Below are positions 5,639 through 19,742 of a stretch of 19,742 nucleotides of DNA, piece by piece. Source of the stretch: a virus (taxonomy: Duplodnaviria > Heunggongvirae > Uroviricota > Caudoviricetes); IMG/VR virus record IMGVR_UViG_2534681835_000041; one strand, written 5' to 3'. Numbering within the stretch: position 1 is the stretch's first letter; each line of letters begins with the position of its first letter. The notes beneath the pieces are model-generated. The model had not been told where the DNA came from and made no database searches. It saw nothing but the letters and a program-made list of their open reading frames with translations. Both the position numbers and the translations under genes were made by a program.

Positions 5639-5692
5639 TGAACCGCCCCGGAAATCCTGGAGACTAAACTCCCTGAGAAAGAGGTAAACAGG

Positions 5693-6019
5693 ATGACTAA
5701 AAATACTCGTTTTTCCCCCGAAGTCCGTCAGCGGGCGATTCGTATGGTTCTGGAAAGTCAGGATGAATATGACTCACAGTGGGCGGCAATTTGTTCCATT
5801 GCCCCAAAGATTGGCTGTACGCCGGAGACTCTGCGTGTCTGGGTTCGCCAGCATGAGCGGGATACCGGGGGCGGTGATGGTGGGCTCACCAGCGCTGAAC
5901 GTCAGCGTCTGAAAGAGCTGGAACGTGAAAATCGTGAACTGCGCCGCAGTAACGATATCCTTCGCCAGGCTTCCGCTTATTTTGCGAAGGCGGAGTTCGA
6001 CCGCCTCTGGAAAAAATGA
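5693..6019 (+). CDS. IS3-family transposase OrfA (HTH, leucine-zipper)
   Basis: 108 aa '[22 protein letters not shown]...[30 protein letters not shown]'; ends in an A6 tract at 6011-6016 overlapping the orfB start. Confidence 0.9.
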
Positions 6020-6906
6020 TGCCACTGCTGGATAAGCTGCGTGAGCAGTACGGGGTCGGACCGGTATGCAGCGAACTGCATATTGCCCCGTCAACGTATT
6101 ACCATTGTCAGCAACAGCGACATCATCCGGATAAACGCAGTGCCCGTGCGCAGCACGACGACTGGCTGAAGAGAGAGATACAGCGCGTATACGATGAAAA
6201 TCATCAGGTGTACGGTGTGCGTAAAGTCTGGCGTCAGTTGTTACGGGAAGGAATCAGGGTGGCCAGATGTACAGTGGCACGTCTCATGGCGGTTATGGGA
6301 CTTGCCGGTGTTCTCCGGGGTAAAAAGGTCCGTACGACCATCAGCCGGAAAGCCGTTGCCGCAGGCGACCGCGTAAACCGTCAGTTCGTGGCAGAACGAC
6401 CTGACCAGCTGTGGGTGGCTGATTTTACTTACGTCAGCACATGGCAGGGCTTCGTCTATGTGGCGTTTATCATTGATGTGTTTGCCGGATACATCGTGGG
6501 GTGGCGGGTCTCATCGTCTATGGAAACGACATTCGTGCTGGATGCGCTGGAGCAGGCGTTGTGGGCCCGTCGTCCGTCTGGCACCATCCATCACAGCGAT
6601 AAAGGCTCTCAGTATGTGTCACTGGCCTATACGGAGCGACTAAAAGAAGCCGGATTACTGGCATCAACAGGGAGTACAGGCGACTCGTATGACAACGCGA
6701 TGGCTGAGAGCATCAATGGTCTTTACAAAGCGGAGGTAATACACCGTAAGAGCTGGAAAAACCGTGCAGAAGTGGAACTGGCCACACTAACGTGGGTGGA
6801 CTGGTATAACAATCGACGATTGCTGGGAAGGCTGGGCCATACTCCTCCGGCAGAAGCAGAAAAAGCTTATTATGCTTCCATCGGAAACGATGATCTGGCA
6901 GCCTGA
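6016..6906 (+). CDS. IS3-family transposase OrfB (DDE integrase core)
   Basis: 296 aa with the rve-type core ('WVADFTYV', 'HSDKGSQY', '[15 protein letters not shown]'); ATG at 6016 overlaps the orfA stop in the -1 frame. Confidence 0.9.
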
Positions 6907-6948
6907 GTTCACAGATAAAACACTCTCCAGGAAACCCGGGGCGGTTCA

Positions 6949-7354
6949 GTTCTTTGACTGGTTCAAAAGAGTGACTGGTTCTGGGTGAATCTCCTGCACT
7001 ACCCCCTGGTGCAACTCCTGCACTACCTGGTGAATTTGCTGCACCAGATAGTGAATTATTTGCACTACTCCCTGGTGAATCTCCTGCACCATCCAGATGA
7101 AGGAGATAGATATTAATTGAGTTACCTTTTTCACCTTTCCGGGTGACTTTTTTTACCAGCCCGGAATCACAAAGGGCCGCAATATGATTCATCACAGAAC
7201 GTTTGCTAATCTCGCACTGATCAGCAATATGCTGGTAGCTGGGCCAGCACTCACCCTGATCGCTGGCATTATCAGCCAGCTTGATCAGAACCAGTTTTCG
7301 CAATGGATTACCCACTCGAATTTTCATCGCTTTAACCATCAGCTCCATACTCAT
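6949..7354 (-). pseudogene. replication initiator O-like gene (N-terminal HTH domain), 3'-truncated by IS copy 1
   Basis: N-terminus 'LRKLVLIKLADNASDQGECWPSYQHIADQCEISKRSVMNHIAALCDSGLV' resembles the N-terminal DNA-binding region of lambda O and related replisome organisers. The ORF continues through iteron-encoded low-complexity sequence and then reads into the IS. ATG at 7354 overlaps the upstream stop. Confidence 0.5.
6983..7094. repeat. five imperfect ~21-25-bp direct repeats (iteron-like) inside the O-like ORF, next to an AT-rich stretch
   Basis: Units built on gtgaat/gtgcaa..tcctgcac start at 6985, 7009, 7030, 7051 and 7076 (spacing 24/21/21/25 bp); an AT-rich segment follows at about 7100-7140. 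Confidence 0.5.
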
Positions 7355-7575
7355 GCTGCACCTCCGAGATGCTTCATGTTTTTTCCGGAGCGAAAGGCTA
7401 TAAGCGGCATACTGACGCGGTAATTACGGCCCAGCGGTTCACAAATCACCTTCTGGCATTCACGGTCAACCAGGCTAACACGTAGAACATGCCCTGCAGG
7501 CGTGGTGTACCACTGACCCGGACGAGGACAACGGAAAGTTTGATTGGTAAACCGTTTGAAAATATTCCGGATCAT
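7351..7575 (-). CDS. hypothetical small protein (74 aa, Cys-containing)
   Basis: ATG at 7575 overlaps the stop of the Rha-domain gene (ATGA), and its own stop overlaps the O-like ATG (ATGA). No motif recognised. Confidence 0.45.
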   Translation of the reverse strand: MIRNIFKRFTNQTFRCPRPGQWYTTPAGHVLRVSLVDRECQKVICEPLGRNYRVSMPLIAFRSGKNMKHLGGAA

Positions 7576-8735
7576 TTGCGCCCCCTTACCTCTGAAGGGT
7601 TCAGCGACAAATTTATGAGGCAGGCCAGCGCCGAAGCATCATTAATATAGTCATATAAGCTAACAGCCAGCGGAGATTCGGCTTTTGCCAACATAGGATA
7701 AAGCTGCTGCAGCCAGACCTGATGAATTGATGAAATGTAGGAATAGAGAACACTGGCGTTATGTGCAACGTCGCTCGGTACAGAGGGCTTTGAAAGCTGT
7801 TTCTCCATCTGGTTAAAGGCATTGATGTATGCCTCTTTGAACTGGGCAGCACGTTTGCCAGTGAAGCCCATTGCCAGGAACGCGAAGCCGTCGCGGGTGA
7901 TGTGGTAGCAAGGAAGTTTGCGAGTACCGCCGTTGGGCTGGTGTACCAAAATTGATGTCTCCGCAAAATTGCGGGCACAAAACTCTGGAGAACAATCCAA
8001 AATGCGGATCTTTTTCAGAACATCGTCATGACGTTTAGAGAAGAAGTCAGCAACAGCCAAAGAAGATGTAACAGCCTGACCATCAACGATGGCAATTTCA
8101 GGTTGAGAGAGGGTTGGGAGAGTAGTCATGGTGACAGCCCCGGTAGTCAGTTTTTCAGAAAACTCACCACATGGGACGCCAATCACAGAGGTGGTGAGAC
8201 GTACAGGGTTGGCGTTACCGGAGACTACCGAACCCGGCCCGACCGAAGTCGGCCCTGTACGCCCCACCATAATTTGGGCGTAGCAATGCTCATGACACGA
8301 AAAAACCGCATGAGCGCGGTTATGCTCAGTAATCAATTTCAGGACGCCAATCCCGGCACCCGCTTTATAAGGTGCCTGAACAGTGTAACGTCCCGGAATG
8401 GCAGAATCAATGTGCTGGTGGTCCTTCACACTCAACAAAATCACGCCTGAATTTCCACAAAGGACTAAAGCACTCATGCGGGTAGTCTTTGCGAAGATAG
8501 ATAACGCGCTGTGTTTCTGGCTCCCAACGAATAACATGAACATAAAGTCCTCTTCCGTCACGAAACCAGCGGTTAAGTTCCTGCACAACTCGCCCCCCAC
8601 AGTCAGGTAAAGTTCTCTGTGGTTACTTACAGCCAGGTGATTTGGTAATCTGCATTCATACCGTAACAACAGGTGTTCAGCGACGCTGACCACCAGCTGT
8701 TGCGACAAACGGTTATTTGCCGTTAAACTGTTCAT
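7572..8735 (-). CDS. Rha-family phage regulatory protein with an unusual ~200-aa N-terminal extension
   Basis: Residues ~205-300 ('PEIAIVDGQAVTSSLAVADFFSKRHDDVLKKIRIL...YHITRDGFAFLAMGFTGKRAAQFKEAYINAFNQME') match the Rha domain. The 387-codon frame is open from an ATG at 8735 that overlaps the CII-like stop (ATGA). Alternative internal start at 8129 would give a 185-aa Rha-only protein. Confidence 0.5.
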   Translation of the reverse strand: MNSLTANNRLSQQLVVSVAEHLLLRYECRLPNHLAVSNHRELYLTVGGELCRNLTAGFVTEEDFMFMLFVGSQKHSALSIFAKTTRMSALVLCGNSGVILLSVKDHQHIDSAIPGRYTVQAPYKAGAGIGVLKLITEHNRAHAVFSCHEHCYAQIMVGRTGPTSVGPGSVVSGNANPVRLTTSVIGVPCGEFSEKLTTGAVTMTTLPTLSQPEIAIVDGQAVTSSLAVADFFSKRHDDVLKKIRILDCSPEFCARNFAETSILVHQPNGGTRKLPCYHITRDGFAFLAMGFTGKRAAQFKEAYINAFNQMEKQLSKPSVPSDVAHNASVLYSYISSIHQVWLQQLYPMLAKAESPLAVSLYDYINDASALACLINLSLNPSEVRGRK

Positions 8736-10326: not shown

Positions 10327-10348
10327 CCCCCTACCTCAACATCAATTA

Positions 10349-10368
10349 GCCACCAGAAGGTGGCTTTT
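10349..10368 (+). terminator. rho-independent terminator downstream of cI
   Basis: Stem gccacc / ggtggc with agaa loop, followed by TTTT at 10365-10368; 23 nt after the cI stop. Confidence 0.6.
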
Positions 10369-10892: not shown

Positions 10893-11029
10893 ACAAAACA
10901 GAGAAGAGCATCACCGGACGACGGGCTCATAACCCAATCCACCCGGGCGGCTGCCACCGCAGGTGTTCTTCTCTGTTTTGTGGAGAAACCAACCGACCTT
11001 GCAGGGTCGATATGATGAGGAGCAGCAAA

Positions 11030-12409: not shown

Positions 12410-12853
12410 ATGTCATTTATTAAAACTTTTTCCGGGAAACCAGTCAATGAACCAATAGCTGTTGGTGAATCTGCTGATGAGTCTGTGCGAGTTCGTTCAA
12501 ACCGACCGGAATACTCTCCGGAGTTTGAGCAGGCATGGCTGGCATATCCCAAACGTGCTGGTGGCAATTCAAAATCTGCAGCCTTCAAAGCCTGGAAAGC
12601 CCGTTTGAATGAGGGGGTAAACCCCGAAACCATGCTGGAAGGTGTGAAACGCTACGCGGGCTGGGTATCTGCGATGGGTAACAGCGGCACACAATTTGTG
12701 AAACAGGCTGTCACGTTCTTTGGTCCGGATCGTCATTTCGAAGAATCCTGGGAAGTTCCTGCGGTATCTGCAGCCAGACGTGAGGACCCGTACTTCAAAG
12801 CCAGTTACGACAACGTGGACTACAGCCAGATCCCGGCAGGATTCAGGGGGTGA
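12410..12853 (+). CDS. hypothetical phage protein (147 aa) with 'FEQAWLAYPKRAGG..KSAAFKAWKA' motif
   Basis: ATG at 12410 with GGAG 6 nt upstream (the track ORF starts at a GTG at 12383). The motif resembles ones I associate with phage replication-associated proteins, unverified. Confidence 0.5.
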   Translation: MSFIKTFSGKPVNEPIAVGESADESVRVRSNRPEYSPEFEQAWLAYPKRAGGNSKSAAFKAWKARLNEGVNPETMLEGVKRYAGWVSAMGNSGTQFVKQAVTFFGPDRHFEESWEVPAVSAARREDPYFKASYDNVDYSQIPAGFRG

Positions 12854-12855
12854 TC

Positions 12856-12948
12856 ATGAGTCTGTTAAATGACGTTCAGAAATTCATTGAAGCCCATCCG
12901 GGCTGTACTTCCGGAGACATTGCGGATGCTTTTTACGTGGGGGCTTAA
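12856..12948 (+). CDS. candidate 30-aa micro-ORF between the 147-aa gene and the Dam-like gene
   Basis: ATG at 12856, 2 nt after the upstream stop, with AGGGGG upstream; its TAA overlaps the Dam ATG (TAATG). Supported only by tight operon packing. Confidence 0.3.
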   Translation: MSLLNDVQKFIEAHPGCTSGDIADAFYVGA

Positions 12949-13601
12949 TGAGTAATAAATATTGCCAGGCGCTGGTAGAACTGCGGAACAAACCAGCCCA
13001 TGAACTGAAGGAAGTGGGCGATCAGTGGCGCACGACGGACAGCATTTTCTGGGGGATTAACACCATGTTTGGCCCGTTTGTTCTGGATCTGTTCACTGAC
13101 GGTGATAACGCCAAATGTGCTGCGTATTACACGGCGGAAGACAACGCGCTGGCGCATGACTGGTCAGAACGTCTTGCGGAGCTTAAAGGTGCTGCCTTTG
13201 GTAATCCCCCATACAGCCGCGCCAGTCAGCATGAGGGGAAATACATCACTGGCATGCGTTACATCATGAAACATGCCAGTGCCATGCGTGATAAAGGCGG
13301 GCGCTATGTTTTCCTGATCAAAGCTGCCACCAGCGAAGTGTGGTGGCCGGAAGATGCAGACCATATTGCTTTTATTCGCGGGCGTATTGGTTTTGAACTG
13401 CCTGCCTGGTTTATCCCGAAAGACGAAAAGCAGGTGCCAACAGGTGCTTTCTTCGCTGGTGCTATTGCTGTTTTCGACAAGACCTGGAAGGGACCGGCAA
13501 TCAGCTACATCGGGCGCGATGAACTTGAGGCATGTGGTGAGGCATTTCTGGCGCAGGTTCGCCAGCAGGCGGAAAAACTGGTCAGGGAGATGGCGGCATG
13601 A
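12948..13601 (+). CDS. phage N6-adenine DNA methyltransferase (Dam-type)
   Basis: 'FGNPPYS' (NPPY catalytic motif) in a 217-aa protein typical of the phage Dam family; stop overlaps the next start (ATGA). Confidence 0.7.
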   Translation: MSNKYCQALVELRNKPAHELKEVGDQWRTTDSIFWGINTMFGPFVLDLFTDGDNAKCAAYYTAEDNALAHDWSERLAELKGAAFGNPPYSRASQHEGKYITGMRYIMKHASAMRDKGGRYVFLIKAATSEVWWPEDADHIAFIRGRIGFELPAWFIPKDEKQVPTGAFFAGAIAVFDKTWKGPAISYIGRDELEACGEAFLAQVRQQAEKLVREMAA

Positions 13602-13924
13602 CGACGTTAACTCAATGCCAGCAGCAGGTGCTGGATATGCTGATTTCTTACCAGAAAGAACGTGGCTTCCCGCCAACTAATCAGGAGGTGGCAACCATGC
13701 TGGGATACCGTTCAGTGAATGCAGCGGTGGAGCATCTTCGCGCACTGGAGAAAAAAGGCGTCATCACGATAAAGCGTGGCGTGGCATGGGGGATAACGCT
13801 TCATACCGCGGTGAAGGACGACGACAGCGAGGCAGCCGGGATTATCCGCGCACTGCTTGCCGGTGAGGAAAACGCCAGACTGCGTGCAGCCCACTGGTTA
13901 CATGAGAGGGGCCTGAAAGTATGA
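13598..13924 (+). CDS. LexA N-terminal DNA-binding-domain homolog lacking the S24 peptidase domain
   Basis: 'MTTLTQCQQQVLDMLISYQKERGFPPTNQEVATMLGYRSVNAAVEHLRALEKKGVITIKRGVAWGITL' aligns by eye with E. coli LexA 1-70 ('[68 protein letters not shown]'). The protein ends at 108 aa with no Ala-Gly cleavage site or Ser/Lys dyad. Confidence 0.7.
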   Translation: MTTLTQCQQQVLDMLISYQKERGFPPTNQEVATMLGYRSVNAAVEHLRALEKKGVITIKRGVAWGITLHTAVKDDDSEAAGIIRALLAGEENARLRAAHWLHERGLKV

Positions 13925-14277
13925 AGCTGATCCTGCCTTTCCCGCCCAGCGTGAACACGTACTGGCGACACCCCAACAAAGGGGCGTTTGCTGGTAAGAG
14001 TCTGATAAGCGCAGCGGGGCGCAAATTCCAGAGCGCGGCATGCGCAGCAATAGTTGAGCAGTTACGTCGTCTGCCGAAACCAACGTCGGCACCTGCTTCA
14101 GTGGAGATCGTGTTGTTTCCTCCGGATAACCGGATCCGCGATCTGGACAACTATAACAAGGCGCTGTTTGACGCCCTGACCCACGCGGGTGTGTGGGAAG
14201 ACGACAGACAGGTGAAAAGAATGCTGGTGGAGTGGGGACCGGTTATCCCGAAAGGGAAGGTCGAGATCACTATCTGA
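13921..14277 (+). CDS. rusA: RusA-family Holliday junction resolvase, 3' end replaced by the IS insertion
   Basis: 'LPFPPSVNTYWRH...RDLDNYNKALFDALTHAGVWEDDRQV' matches RusA. The stop codon TGA (14275-14277) is supplied by the first bases of the IS; the displaced 11-codon tail is found after the IS at 15588-15623. Confidence 0.75.
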   Translation: MKLILPFPPSVNTYWRHPNKGAFAGKSLISAAGRKFQSAACAAIVEQLRRLPKPTSAPASVEIVLFPPDNRIRDLDNYNKALFDALTHAGVWEDDRQVKRMLVEWGPVIPKGKVEITI

Positions 14278-14316
14278 ACCGCCCCGGGTTTCCTGGAGAG
14301 TGTTTTATCTGTGAAC

Positions 14317-15207
14317 TCAGGCTGCCAGATCATCGTTTCCGATGGAAGCATAATAAGCTTTTTCTGCTTCTGCCGGAGGAGTATGGCCCAGCCTTCCCAG
14401 CAATCGTCGATTGTTATACCAGTCCACCCACGTTAGTGTGGCCAGTTCCACTTCTGCACGGTTTTTCCAGCTCTTACGGTGTATTACCTCCGCTTTGTAA
14501 AGACCATTGATGCTCTCAGCCATCGCGTTGTCATACGAGTCGCCTGTACTCCCTGTTGATGCCAGTAATCCGGCTTCTTTTAGTCGCTCCGTATAGGCCA
14601 GTGACACATACTGAGAGCCTTTATCGCTGTGATGGATGGTGCCAGACGGACGACGGGCCCACAACGCCTGCTCCAGCGCATCCAGCACGAATGTCGTTTC
14701 CATAGACGATGAGACCCGCCACCCCACGATGTATCCGGCAAACACATCAATGATAAACGCCACATAGACGAAGCCCTGCCATGTGCTGACGTAAGTAAAA
14801 TCAGCCACCCACAGCTGGTCAGGTCGTTCTGCCACGAACTGACGGTTTACGCGGTCGCCTGCGGCAACGGCTTTCCGGCTGATGGTCGTACGGACCTTTT
14901 TACCCCGGAGAACACCGGCAAGTCCCATAACCGCCATGAGACGTGCCACTGTACATCTGGCCACCCTGATTCCTTCCCGTAACAACTGACGCCAGACTTT
15001 ACGCACACCGTACACCTGATGATTTTCATCGTATACGCGCTGTATCTCTCTCTTCAGCCAGTCGTCGTGCTGCGCACGGGCACTGCGTTTATCCGGATGA
15101 TGTCGCTGTTGCTGACAATGGTAATACGTTGACGGGGCAATATGCAGTTCGCTGCATACCGGTCCGACCCCGTACTGCTCACGCAGCTTATCCAGCAGTG
15201 GCATCAT
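14317..15207 (-). CDS. IS3-family transposase OrfB (copy 2)
   Basis: Identical 296-aa translation to 6016-6906. Confidence 0.9.
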
Positions 15208-15530
15208 TTTTTCCAGAGGCGGTCGAACTCCGCCTTCGCAAAATAAGCGGAAGCCTGGCGAAGGATATCGTTACTGCGGCGCAGTTCACGATTTTCACGT
15301 TCCAGCTCTTTCAGACGCTGACGTTCAGCGCTGGTGAGCCCACCATCACCGCCCCCGGTATCCCGCTCATGCTGGCGAACCCAGACACGCAGAGTCTCCG
15401 GCGTACAGCCAATCTTTGGGGCAATGGAACAAATTGCCGCCCACTGTGAGTCATATTCATCCTGACTTTCCAGAACCATACGAATCGCCCGCTGACGGAC
15501 TTCGGGGGAAAAACGAGTATTTTTAGTCAT
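15204..15530 (-). CDS. IS3-family transposase OrfA (copy 2)
   Basis: Identical 108-aa translation to 5693-6019. Confidence 0.9.
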
Positions 15531-15642
15531 CCTGTTTACCTCTTTCTCAGGGAGTTTAGTCTCCAGGAAACCCGGGGCGGTTCAATCAGTAAGTACGAGA
15601 AAACGGCGGGTGCAGCCGCCTGATCAAGAGGAGAAACGAAGT

Positions 15643-16440
15643 ATGAATAATCTGATGGTCATTGATGGTATTGAAGTTCGTCGTGATGCTTATGGTCGTT
15701 ACAGCCTGAACGATTTGCACAGGGCTGCCGGTTCTCTGGATAAGCATAAGCCTGCATTCTGGCTCCGCAATGAGCAAACTGAACGTTTAATAAGCGAGTT
15801 GCAGATTTGCAACTCGGTCAATATAGAGCCAGTTAACGTTATTCGTGGCGGAAATAGCCAGGGGACGTATGTCTGCAAAGAACTGGTGTATGCCTATGCA
15901 ATGTGGATCAGCCCGTCATTCCATCTGAAGGTGATCCGTACTTTCGACATGGTAACCAGCGCACCGGAAAAATTATCCGGACAGGCTGCTGACAAGATGC
16001 AGGCTGGTGTGATCCTGCTGGACTTTATGCGCCGGGAATTAAACCTGTCTAACTCATCAGTGCTTGGAGCCTGTCAGAAACTCCAGGAGGCTGTTGGCTT
16101 ACCGAATCTGGCACCGCGCTATGCCATTGATGCTCCTGCTGACGCGCCTGATGGCTCAAGCCGCCCCACGCTGTCACTGAGTGCACTGCTGAAGCAGTAT
16201 GGTATCCGCCTGACAGCTAATCAGGCATATCACCAGATGGCGAAGCTGGGGATCGTTGAACAACGTGAACGATACAGCCGCACTGCGATTAACAACATCA
16301 AAAAATTCTGGTCGCTGACGGCGAAAGGCTGCATGTTCGGCAAGAACATCACCAGTCCCGCAAATCCGCGCGAGACGCAGCCGCATTTCTTCGAATCCCG
16401 GTTCCCTGAGCTGTTAAAGCTGCTCGATACCGTTCATTGA
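15643..16440 (+). CDS. KilA-N domain protein (Roi/antirepressor-like)
   Basis: N-terminal 'MVIDGIEVRRDAYGRYSLNDLHRAAG...FWLRNEQTERLISEL...GTYVCKELVYAYAMWISPSFHLKVIRTFD' is a typical KilA-N domain. ATG at 15643 with GAGGAG 9 nt upstream; the track ORF begins at a GTG at 15610. Confidence 0.7.
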   Translation: MNNLMVIDGIEVRRDAYGRYSLNDLHRAAGSLDKHKPAFWLRNEQTERLISELQICNSVNIEPVNVIRGGNSQGTYVCKELVYAYAMWISPSFHLKVIRTFDMVTSAPEKLSGQAADKMQAGVILLDFMRRELNLSNSSVLGACQKLQEAVGLPNLAPRYAIDAPADAPDGSSRPTLSLSALLKQYGIRLTANQAYHQMAKLGIVEQRERYSRTAINNIKKFWSLTAKGCMFGKNITSPANPRETQPHFFESRFPELLKLLDTVH

Positions 16441-16441
16441 G

Positions 16442-17437
16442 GTGACCGTGAGAGCGCTACTGACCCCTGAAATTGCCCCGCGTATGGGGATCGTATTGTT
16501 CAGGCCCGGTTCAGAGCTGATGCCCCTGTTTATGCAGGGGCGTGTCCTGCTGGAGCCTGAGCCGGAACGTTATTCATCTTTCGCCAGTGGTGCCGTTCCG
16601 GCGGCATCACAACCGCTGGCGGATGATCCTGCCGTTCGGGCCGTGTTCCGCAATGAGGCAGTGATTCGTCGTGCTGGTGGAGTGGAATGTCTTGAACGCT
16701 GGTTACTTCGTGAAAAAGGTTGCCAGTGGCCTCATTCCGACTGGCACAGCGAGAACATGACCACAATGCGACACACGCCGGGCGCAATCCGTCTGTGCTG
16801 GCACTGCGATAACCAGCTGCGCGATCAGTTCACGGAACGGCTGGAATCAATGGCAACGGATAACTGTACCCGCTGGGTGTTGTCTGTTGTGCGTCGGGAT
16901 CTCGGTTTTGATGACAGTCACGTTGTGACAATGCCGGAACTGTGCTGGTGGCTGATTCGTAATGACCTGGCGGATGCCTTACCGGAAAGTGCAGCCCGTA
17001 AGGCACTGAGATTACCGAAGCCTGTTGTGCCGTCTGTCACCCGGGAAAGTGACCTTGTGCCTTCGGTTCCTGCCACCAGCATCATCCAGGATAAAGCGAA
17101 AAAGGTGCTGGCGCTGAAAGTGGATCCGGAGTCGCCGGAGTCTTTTATGTTACGCCCAAAACGTCGCCGCTGGGTTAATGAAAAGTACACGCGCTGGGTT
17201 AAGACACAGCCGTGTGCATGTTGTGGAAAGCCCGCTGATGATCCCCACCACCTGATAGGCCACGGTCAGTGTGGAATGGGTACAAAAGCGCATGACCTTT
17301 TTGTGTTGCCTTTGTGCAGAAAGCATCACGACGAGCTGCATGCGGATACCGTGGCATTTGAAGAGAAGTATGGCTCTCAGCTGGAGCTGATATTTCGTTT
17401 TATCGATCGTGCGCTGGCAATTGGCGTACTGGCGTAA
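16442..17437 (+). CDS. DUF968-like protein with C-terminal HNH-type Cys/His motif
   Basis: C-terminus 'CACCGKPADDPHHLIGHGQCGMGTKAHDLFVLPLCRKHHDELH' is HNH-like, as in YdfU-type proteins. GTG start at 16442 directly after the KilA-N stop; the true start is uncertain. Confidence 0.6.
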   Translation: MTVRALLTPEIAPRMGIVLFRPGSELMPLFMQGRVLLEPEPERYSSFASGAVPAASQPLADDPAVRAVFRNEAVIRRAGGVECLERWLLREKGCQWPHSDWHSENMTTMRHTPGAIRLCWHCDNQLRDQFTERLESMATDNCTRWVLSVVRRDLGFDDSHVVTMPELCWWLIRNDLADALPESAARKALRLPKPVVPSVTRESDLVPSVPATSIIQDKAKKVLALKVDPESPESFMLRPKRRRWVNEKYTRWVKTQPCACCGKPADDPHHLIGHGQCGMGTKAHDLFVLPLCRKHHDELHADTVAFEEKYGSQLELIFRFIDRALAIGVLA

Positions 17438-17450
17438 GTGGAGAACGAGC

Positions 17451-18203
17451 ATGAACCTTGAAGCCTTACCGAAATATTACTCCCCGAAATCTCCAAAACT
17501 GAGCGATGACGCACCGGCGACAGGCTCTGGTGGTTTAACAATTACGGATGTGATGGCTGCGCAGGGGATGGTGCAGTCAAAAGCACCGCTTGGGTTTGCT
17601 TTATTCCTGGCAAAAGTTGGTGTTCAGGATCCTCAGTTTGCGATTGAAGGTCTGCTCAATTACGCGATGGCACTGGATAACCCGACATTGAATAAATTGA
17701 GTGAAGAAACCCGGCTACAGATCATTCCTTACCTTGTGAATTTTGCCTTTGCTGATTATTCCAGGTCTGCGGCAAGTAAGGCTCGCTGTGAGCATTGTGC
17801 TGGTACTGGATTTCATAATGTATTGCGCGAGGTGGTGAAACACTCCAGAAGCGGGGAATCTGTTATTAAGGAAGAGTGGGTGAAGGAACTATGTCAGCAT
17901 TGTCATGGTAAGGGAGAAGTCAGCACAGCATGCAGAGGGTGCAAGGGTAAAGGTATTGTCCTGGATGAAAAAAGAACCCGGCTTCATGGCACGCCTGTTT
18001 ATAAGGTTTGTGGGCGTTGCAATGGAAACCGGTTTAGCCGTTTACCAACCACACTGGCGCGGCTTCATGTCCAGAAGCTGGTACCAGACCTGACGGATTA
18101 TCAGTGGTACAAAGGATATGCAGATGTCATTGATAAACTGGTTACAAAGTGCTGGCAGGAAGAAGCATATGCAGAGATACAATTGAGAAAGGTGACAAGA
18201 TAA
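17451..18203 (+). CDS. putative late-gene antiterminator (Q-like), with four CxxCxGxG repeats
   Basis: Position immediately upstream of a pR'/tR'-like promoter-terminator pair and the tRNA island. Contains CEHCAGTG, CQHCHGKG, CRGCKGKG, CGRCNGNR (a DnaJ-type zinc-finger pattern). ATG at 17451 with GGAG upstream. Function inferred mainly from context. Confidence 0.45.
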   Translation: MNLEALPKYYSPKSPKLSDDAPATGSGGLTITDVMAAQGMVQSKAPLGFALFLAKVGVQDPQFAIEGLLNYAMALDNPTLNKLSEETRLQIIPYLVNFAFADYSRSAASKARCEHCAGTGFHNVLREVVKHSRSGESVIKEEWVKELCQHCHGKGEVSTACRGCKGKGIVLDEKRTRLHGTPVYKVCGRCNGNRFSRLPTTLARLHVQKLVPDLTDYQWYKGYADVIDKLVTKCWQEEAYAEIQLRKVTR

Positions 18204-18704: not shown

Positions 18705-18780
18705 GGCCCTTTAGCTCAGTGGTGAGAGCGAGCGACTCATAATCGCCAGGTCGCTGGTTCAAATCCAGCAAGGGCCACCA
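18705..18780 (+). tRNA. ileZ: tRNA-Ile2 (anticodon CAT, lysidine type) or tRNA-Met
   Basis: 76-nt cloverleaf folded by hand: acceptor ggccctt/aagggcc, D-stem gctc/gagc, anticodon loop ctCATaa, T-loop ttcaaat, encoded CCA. Close to my recollection of E. coli ileX. Symbol given by analogy with the Stx-phage ileZ-argN-argO cluster. Confidence 0.85.
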
Positions 18781-18789
18781 TATCACATA

Positions 18790-18866
18790 CCGCCATTAGC
18801 TCATCGGGATAGAGCGTCAGCCTTCGAAGCTGGCTGTGCGGGGTTCAAGTCCCCGATGGCGGTCCA
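18790..18866 (+). tRNA. argN: tRNA-Arg (anticodon TCG as read here)
   Basis: 77-nt cloverleaf: acceptor ccgccat/atggcgg, D-stem gctc/gagc, anticodon loop cTTCGaa, T-arm cgggg-ttcaagt-ccccg, encoded CCA. Symbol by analogy. Confidence 0.8.
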
Positions 18867-18879
18867 TTATCAGCATCAT

Positions 18880-18956
18880 GCGTTGTTAGCTCAGCCGGAC
18901 AGAGCAATTGCCTTCTAAGCAATCGGTCACTGGTTCGAATCCAGTACAACGCGCCA
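18880..18956 (+). tRNA. argO: tRNA-Arg (anticodon TCT, reads AGA)
   Basis: 77-nt cloverleaf: acceptor gcgttgt/acaacgc, anticodon stem attgc/gcaat with loop cTTCTaa, T-arm actgg-ttcgaat-ccagt, encoded CCA. Symbol by analogy. Confidence 0.85.
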
Positions 18957-19243
18957 CACCACACTTATCTGCCCTGACTCTCTTTTGCGGGCTTTTTATT
19001 ACAGGAAAGACACCGGACAGTGAAATGTTAAATGCCTCACAATTCAGGTAGTCGACTGTTGCCTGACATGCTGAGCGTTTGTTAAAAAAATCCTGCATGA
19101 TGAATCCCCCTGGGCGGCGGGGCATAATGACAGATGTTTGGTTGCGTATTGTATAGGCAAGTTGCGGATTCTGTCTGGTCATTGCAGAATTCACCGGGAG
19201 GCACCCGGCATCATGCTGTATACAGAGATTAGGCATATATCCA

Positions 19244-19268
19244 GGCTCCTCATCGCAGGAGCCTTTTT
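19244..19268 (+). terminator. rho-independent terminator in the tRNA-to-nanS-p gap
   Basis: Stem ggctcct / aggagcc with 6-nt loop, followed by TTTTT. Confidence 0.6.
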
Positions 19269-19273
19269 ACATG

Positions 19274-19299
19274 CAAAAAAAGCCCGAGTAGGTTCGGGC
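19274..19299 (-). terminator. minus-strand rho-independent terminator (back-to-back with the previous one)
   Basis: Hairpin gcccga-gtaggt-tcgggc (19282-19299) preceded on + by A7 (19274-19280), which is a T-run on the minus strand. Confidence 0.45.
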
Positions 19300-19358
19300 A
19301 ACAGCATGAGATACTTGCATTGTCATTTTTATCGTGTGGATTTTAACCAGGGTTTATA

Positions 19359-19391
19359 AGGCTGCGCAACTGCGCGGCCTTTTTCGTTTTG
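19359..19391 (+). terminator. rho-independent terminator upstream of the esterase gene
   Basis: GC-rich imperfect palindrome aggctgcgca / tgcgcggcct followed by TTTTCGTTTT. Confidence 0.5.
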
Positions 19392-19478
19392 CGGGCTGCG
19401 GTTCTCCTCTTTTGATTCTCCTTGTGGCCGGACCGTGGCCCGCAACTGTTGAGGAAAATCCCGGAAAGGGGAGGAATA

Positions 19479-19742
19479 ATGGCATTTAAACACTATGACG
19501 TGGTCAGGGCGGCGTCGCCGTCAGACCTTGCGGAAAAGCTGACACACAAACTGAAAGAGGGCTGGCAGCCGTTTGGTAGTCCGGTGGCCATAACCCCTTA
19601 TACCCTGATGCAGGCGATTGCAGCAGAAGGTGATGTGGTGGTCAGTGGTGCAACTGAGCCGGATTGGTACTACGTCATCGTACTGGCCGGGCAGTCCAAT
19701 GCAATGGCTTACGGGGAAGGGCTTCCGCTTCCGGATTCATAC
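19479..19742 (+). CDS. NanS-p-like phage esterase (DUF1737 N-terminus followed by an SGNH 'GQSN' block), 5' part only
   Basis: ATG at 19479 with GGGGAGG upstream; 'MAFKHYDVVRAASPSDLAEKLTHKLKEGWQPFGSPV...' then 'VIVLAGQSNAMAYGEG'. Frame is open to the window end. Not in the ORF track because it is incomplete. Confidence 0.55.
   Translation, partial: MAFKHYDVVRAASPSDLAEKLTHKLKEGWQPFGSPVAITPYTLMQAIAAEGDVVVSGATEPDWYYVIVLAGQSNAMAYGEGLPLPDSY

Follow-up and report, generated by a model that had tools for sequence, protein, structure and literature searches.

A very probable simple insertion of IS1203 at the 3' end of the prophage gene rusA in Escherichia coli O111:H8 strain 8E

Escherichia coli O111:H8 strain 8E (DEC8E) carries a defective lambdoid prophage whose rusA gene is interrupted close to its 3' end, very probably through the simple insertion of an IS1203 element into what was a 129-codon gene. 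The window under study is a stretch of 19,742 nucleotides (IMG/VR record IMGVR_UViG_2534681835_000041), the relevant features of which are collected in Table 1. According to the proposed course of events, an IS1203 copy, hereafter referred to as copy 2, would have entered by simple transposition at the boundary between codons 118 and 119 of rusA, a member of a nin-like early operon; the 3-bp target ATC was duplicated. Since the ends of IS3-family elements start with TGA, the rusA frame is stopped at once, without the addition of any foreign residue.

Table 1. Coordinates of the IS1203 copies, the interrupted rusA gene and the neighbouring features in the window.
Feature	Position	Strand	Description
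IS1203/IS629 copy 2	14275..15584	minus	1310 bp, TG...CA ends; transposase antisense to rusA
IRR, right terminal inverted repeat	14275..14299		Adjoins rusA; first 3 bases form the new stop codon; 25 nt, 100% complementary
IRL, left terminal inverted repeat	15560..15584		Faces kilA-N; GTT variant at positions 14-16
orfB, DDE integrase-core part of the transposase	14317..15207	minus	296 aa; Pfam rve (9.3e-28), HTH_21, rve_3
orfA, HTH part of the transposase	15204..15530	minus	108 aa; Pfam HTH_Tnp_1
ALIL frameshift-stimulating pseudoknot, IS3-family	15133..15249	minus	Rfam RF01497, 121.5 bits vs gathering score 50
Target-site duplication, left copy, ATC	14272..14274		Codon 118 (Ile); single ATC in empty sites
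Target-site duplication, right copy, ATC	15585..15587		Sequence reading
Truncated rusA	13921..14277	plus	ORF list and translation; 118 codons, TGA (14275-14277) from IS bases 1-3
Displaced rusA 3' remnant	15588..15623	plus	11 codons SKYEKTAGAAA and the original TGA
kilA-N domain gene	15643..16440	plus	Pfam KilA-N 7.7e-26; WP_001061413.1; begins 58 nt beyond the IS
DUF968 / HNH-like gene	16448..17437	plus	Pfam DUF968 4.1e-80; PHROG 96, HNH endonuclease
Q-type antiterminator gene	17451..18203	plus	Pfam Antiterm 6.7e-53
IS1203 copy 1	5639..6948	plus	Lacks its own flanking duplication; borders the inverted segment on one side
Inverted segment	6949..12437		BLAST vs LSU61, gene order in the intact O22:H8 Stx1a phage, junction sequences

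The allele that preceded the insertion can be read directly from the window. Once the IS and one ATC are deleted in silico, the rusA frame continues through SKYEKTAGAAA to the TGA at 15621-15623, and the gene reaches 129 codons. An empty-site query of 1000 nt, made by joining 500 nt from each flank after removal of the IS and one ATC, is matched without gaps or interruption by 2066 out of 5426 complete E. coli genomes, and the best matches (99.8-99.9% identical) belong to O157:H7 LSU61, 493/89 and the clinical isolates 2013C-3342 and 2015C-4498. A single ATC occurs at the empty site of both LSU61 and the O22:H8 phage. The rusA gene annotated in LSU61 (390 nt, 129 aa, WP_000767105.1), the translation of which is identical to the reconstructed RusA, precedes kilA-N by 19 nt, with DUF968 and the antiterminator gene further on, and the exact 129-aa protein is encoded on at least 1000 contigs. 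An earlier note on this DNA had pointed to the direct ATC repeat around copy 2, to the supply of the rusA stop codon by the first three bases of the IS and to a pre-insertion allele that could be reconstructed; all three statements agree with the sequence, and the last one also with the allele of LSU61. The same note correctly placed the restored TGA ahead of kilA-N, at a distance which is 19 nt (ATG at 15643) instead of the 20 nt that it gave.

The occupied site, searched for with a query running from rusA through the IS to kilA-N, is found as a single piece in one of the 5426 complete genomes, that of O111:H8 strain 8E (CP077465), with 100% identity. The window is also 100% identical to a contig end of the DEC8E draft assembly (AIGJ01000067.1), and the exact 118-aa RusA is encoded on four contigs, namely CP077465, AIGJ01000067.1, a Logan read-set contig and a 526-nt metagenome contig, the first three of which display the same IS junctions. 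Whereas the pre-insertion allele is common, the rusA insertion is private to one strain and hence probably recent. Two candidates for a wider occurrence were considered and rejected. The 526-nt metagenome contig, taken as a possible second insertion, is 95.8% identical and simply cut by its own end at that codon, the kind of cut end that is selected by an exact-match look-up. Many O111 genomes gave a single-piece match to positions 477-1813 of the query (the IS and 24 nt upstream), which could have pointed to a shared, older rusA::IS junction; L003, one of these genomes, when read, presented a chance purine-rich extension by an IS near a different Q gene.

Copy 2 is a complete element provided with 25-bp inverted repeats, orfA and orfB, an A6 run, an ALIL pseudoknot and a 404-aa OrfAB. 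The IS3 family was recognized by a length of 1.2-1.55 kb, inverted repeats of the type 5'-TG...CA-3', an orfA with an HTH motif and an orfB with a DDE/rve domain in phases 0 and -1, a slippery A-run, a downstream stimulatory structure and a target-site duplication of 3-4 bp, and copy 2 possesses this length and these ends, the two overlapping ORFs accompanied by the A-run and the pseudoknot, and the target duplication. Its termini, which read TGAACCGCCCCGGGTTTCCTGGAGA and the exact reverse complement thereof, form a perfect inverted repeat (TGAAC...GTTCA). The A6 run (IS positions 373-378) lies beside the ATGA overlap of orfA and orfB, where a -1 shift yields a fused OrfAB of the same length as the annotated WP_171877072.1. 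In the finished 8E genome, the product of copy 2 is labelled by RefSeq as an IS3-like element IS1203 family transposase with programmed frameshift, and copy 2 is 99.1-100% identical to copies that RefSeq labels as IS1203 family, the comparison being with annotated copies. IS1203 is an isoform of IS629 and, as a member of the IS3 family, transposes by a copy-out/paste-in mechanism. IS629 generates target duplications of 3-4 bp, and 62% of its copies in O157 reside within prophages (PMC3271280).

The two IS1203 copies of the window differ by three bases only, at positions 14-16 of IRL (GTT at 15569-15571 in copy 2, AAA at 5652-5654 in copy 1), and GTT renders the two 25-bp ends of copy 2 perfectly symmetric. 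This symmetry was considered as a possible oddity of copy 2 and the idea was rejected, the GTT variant occurring at an identity of at least 99% in 222 E. coli records; both IRL variants are common in E. coli.

With respect to the protein, the insertion trims the C-terminus of RusA by 11 residues, as had been proposed, and the truncation point coincides exactly with the last residue that the Pfam RusA domain covers (aa 118). Scored on the reconstructed 129-aa protein, the domain (PF05866) spans aa 6-118 with a score of 55.3 bits (cutoff 22.8), and the RusA structure 1Q8R of the PDB is matched with E=6.5e-18. Residues R73, D74, D76, N77, K80 and D95 are all kept and correspond to R69, D70, D72, N73, K76 and D91 of K-12 RusA, residues supported by mutagenesis among which D70, D72, K76 and D91 are catalytic and R69 binds DNA (PMC10956419). 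Residue I118 aligns with I114 of K-12 RusA (1Q8R, 120 aa), which ends with the tail TEMGNE. Because the whole domain and the equivalents of the catalytic residues are retained, a loss of function does not follow from the truncation; judged from the sequence, RusA(1-118) is probably a folded and catalytically competent resolvase, and its activity is probably kept since only a tail located outside the domain is lost.

This tail is nevertheless a conserved feature of the subfamily. Among 120 listed cluster representatives the commonest RusA lengths are 128-130 aa, and nearly all of the listed uninterrupted relatives possess, after ...G[KR]VEITI, a tail of 10-12 residues of the form [ST]K[YF]E..AGAAA, the motif and length of which are conserved in homologues from E. 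coli, Salmonella, Citrobacter, Cronobacter and Atlantibacter, with A125 and A129 nearly invariant. Owing to this conservation across the Enterobacteriaceae, the tail may matter for the stability or the interactions of RusA. An AlphaFold2 model built from a 31-sequence alignment has a mean pLDDT of 51.9, too low to judge the order of the tail, and none of the papers or experiments found deals with the C-terminal tail of RusA. The earlier note had regarded uninterrupted relatives ending at the last residue of the truncated ORF as evidence that would speak against its reading; when the uninterrupted alleles were compared, no RusA ending at I118 appeared either in the tail-scan matches or in the printed unmatched tails of the 120 listed representatives, so that its reading is not refuted, and the shorter entries inspected were labelled partial or cut by contig ends.

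In intact relatives, dam, a lexA-like gene, rusA, kilA-N, DUF968 and Q are closely packed, with ATGA overlaps and gaps of 19, 7 and 13 nt, an arrangement which looks like a single operon. The insertion introduces 1313 bp where the gap had measured 19 nt, so that about 1.37 kb without translation now follows the rusA stop before the start codon of kilA-N is reached. Across the IS the plus strand, antisense to the transposase, exhibits a negative GC skew (C>G), being C-rich and G-poor, and a long untranslated C-rich RNA is the classic condition for Rho-dependent polarity. Transcription entering from rusA would meet this whole stretch before reaching kilA-N. A consensus scan for plus-strand promoter-like sites from the IS to Q gave nothing but a 9-of-12 match inside kilA-N (15944-15973), and a single terminator-like hairpin, with a weak stem of 5 bp in IRR (14284-14296), was detected on the plus strand of the IS; neither of these sites is decisive. 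Given the long untranslated C-rich stretch and the lack of a convincing promoter between the IS and Q, it is plausible that upstream promoters express kilA-N, DUF968 and Q less strongly as a result of Rho-dependent polarity. No N-like antiterminator was recognized by a PHROGs scan of the ORFs of the immunity and early-left regions (the cI-yfdP gap, cI, cro and their neighbours), a type of scan that an unrecognized antiterminator would escape. An IS629 located inside stx2 of O157 FRIK1275 abolished neither downstream transcription nor phage production (PMC7430833); the transcript of this stx2::IS629 is, however, Q-antiterminated, whereas the rusA-kilA-N transcript is not known to be. The proposal of the earlier note that KilA-N, DUF968 and Q are cut off from upstream transcription holds as far as their physical separation by 1313 bp is concerned, but it is weakened by the state of the upstream operon, in which the segment 6949-12437 is inverted, so that 'upstream transcription' is poorly defined here.

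The inverted segment contains the 5' half of the replication gene, rha, ymfL, the cro-like gene, the cI-like gene, yfdP and yfdQ. As a result, the two halves of the replication gene have been separated, the 5' half occupying 7354..6949 on the minus strand and the 3' half 12439-12853 on the plus strand, and the cro-like gene, ymfL and rha now read away from rusA, whereas the cI-like gene, yfdP and yfdQ read toward it. The triplet AAC, present once in the intact replication gene (AAAGAACCAGTC), occurs here twice, beside copy 1 (as GTT, 6949-6951) and at the IS-less junction (12438-12440), from which it follows that copy 1 first entered the iteron-like repeats of the replication gene as a simple insertion. 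The other breakpoint is located within the 5' end of yfdR, where 3-4 bp (TGCT) are missing, and the IS-less junction is private to strain 8E. Two routes fit these junctions. In one, two IS copies in inverted orientation would have recombined homologously, and one of them would then have been lost by IEE-type excision together with a little of its flank; in the other, the transposase would have carried out a one-ended strand transfer. IEE has been credited with a microhomology-mediated end-joining activity (bioRxiv 10.1101/2023.06.07.543989). Between the replication gene and dam, the PerC-family gene yfdN is mostly deleted (12853-12948) in comparison with LSU61 and the O22:H8 phage. In the complete 8E genome, the portal gene of the prophage is frameshifted, its HNH and DUF551 genes are truncated, and the region examined at its dusA end lacks an annotated integrase.

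Other elements were noticed in the same part of the window. Two RNAs are recognized by Rfam on the minus strand, a C4 antisense RNA at 8187-8274 and the Hfq-binding RNA isrK at 8299-8375; both lie inside the 5' part of a 387-aa Rha/Ant-like ORF (7572-8735), an arrangement pointing to antirepressor control by a module like P1 c4/ant or Gifsy isrK. A possible bidirectional terminator, in the form of a symmetric GC-rich hairpin (10348-10365), is located 22 nt past the stop of the cI-like repressor gene; a T-run (TTTCATT) follows it on the plus strand and a less pronounced T-rich tail on the minus strand. Upstream of yfdP, an imperfect inverted repeat of 25 nt (10893-10917 / 10957-10981) was noticed.

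Several other explanations have to be weighed against a simple insertion, or against the effects attributed to it. It is extremely improbable, and already refuted by the observations, that an assembly error created the apparent insertion or that rusA natively ends at I118 with the IS lying just downstream of its stop. An artefact could be suspected in view of the location of the window at a draft contig end, the last 740 bases of which differ from the finished genome, but the junction is the same in the finished CP077465 and in the separate read-set contig, and the window and the finished 8E genome do not differ at a single position across 13500-16500. A native stop is hardly compatible with the empty site, where ATC is directly followed by AGT AAG... 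without any stop, nor with the homologues examined, none of which ends at I118. The 82 differences between the window and the finished genome all cluster in 19000-19742, far from the rusA insertion, where the end of the draft contig is probably chimeric or the product of collapsed paralogues. Three tRNA genes occur downstream of Q (18705-18953; Ile, Arg and Arg in RefSeq), together with the sRNA STnc100 (19066-19274, plus strand) and the anti-GcvB sRNA AgvB (19275-19334, minus strand), and the region 18705-19334 has a Stx-phage-like late-region layout without stx.

A different question is whether the insertion has any consequence. For Q it may have none, if the inversion, together with the loss of yfdN and of the replication gene, had already uncoupled and rewired the early operon, a possibility that has much to recommend it even though we lean slightly against it; the IS would then be a further neutral lesion of a decaying prophage. 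The inverted segment and the split replication gene are observed, as are the mostly deleted yfdN, the damaged portal, HNH and DUF551 genes and the missing annotation of an integrase at the dusA end, and both rearrangements are strain-private. The IS insertion and the inversion could nevertheless have occurred in either order, some repressor-controlled transcription from the cI/yfdP/yfdQ side, which reads toward rusA and Q, could have reached Q before the IS arrived, and the Q, DUF968 and kilA-N genes are all intact ORFs. In any case, the cro-side early region no longer points toward rusA and Q after this IS-associated inversion, and the biological weight of the IS in rusA is probably small. 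For RusA itself, it seems unlikely that the truncation alters the behaviour of the protein through the loss of a regulatory tail, i.e., that ..KYE..AGAAA is a degradation or interaction motif and that RusA(1-118) is stabilised, destabilised or misregulated. The conserved length (10-12 aa) and motif, the two nearly invariant alanines and the terminal Ala-Ala, which we take to resemble the ClpX C-motif-1, are in favour of such a role, but the biochemically active K-12 RusA has a different, 6-residue tail and the Pfam domain already ends at residue 118. We give still less credit to a bolder proposal, which is quite improbable, that the tail is a control tag, recognized for instance by a protease or a partner, whose removal by the IS, with the catalytic domain kept, deregulates the 8E resolvase and, separately, that the inversion arose by an unusual one-ended or IEE-assisted pathway of the IS3 family.

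As a simple insertion, the rusA case belongs with the very well-known IS629/IS1203 insertions that diversify EHEC prophages, and it shows no departure from the known behaviour of the IS3 family. It resembles the stx2::IS1203v and stx2::IS629 insertions of EHEC in the element family, the size, the 3-4-bp duplication and the preference for prophages, and it shares with EHEC IS629/IS1203 insertions their variability from strain to strain (PMC3271280, PMC7430833) and their potential for IEE-promoted precise excision (bioRxiv 10.1101/2023.06.07.543989). It differs from the EHEC examples in its target, the 3' end of rusA, in its location in a stx-less prophage by a dusA fragment and in its presence in a single genome out of 5426. 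In phage lambda, the r32 mutation consists of an IS2 located between cII and O and represents a polar IS insertion in the early operon, to which the present case is similar in that an IS occurs upstream of Q in a rightward early operon and that Rho-dependent polarity is expected downstream. The N antitermination of lambda suppresses the polarity of early-operon IS insertions. In the 8E prophage, by contrast, no N-like gene was recognized among the scanned ORFs, and the operon is also inverted and truncated. In K-12, the rus-1 and rus-2 mutations, the closest precedents involving rusA, correspond to IS2 or IS10 inserted upstream of rusA in the prophage DLP12, where they activate the silent gene (PMC10956419). 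There too an IS placed beside a prophage rusA changes its expression context, but the K-12 elements are upstream and activating, whereas that of 8E sits inside the 3' end, costs 11 codons and is antisense, with no activation implied.

The insertion thus represents a textbook case of the IS3 family, with an empty site that can be recovered base for base, and it carries little weight beyond strain typing, as one more lesion in an already defective prophage. It could be used as a strain-specific marker of DEC8E/8E and could offer IEE a natural substrate for precise excision, and the natural RusA(1-118) allele could serve to test the role of the conserved C-terminal tail in this RusA subfamily.
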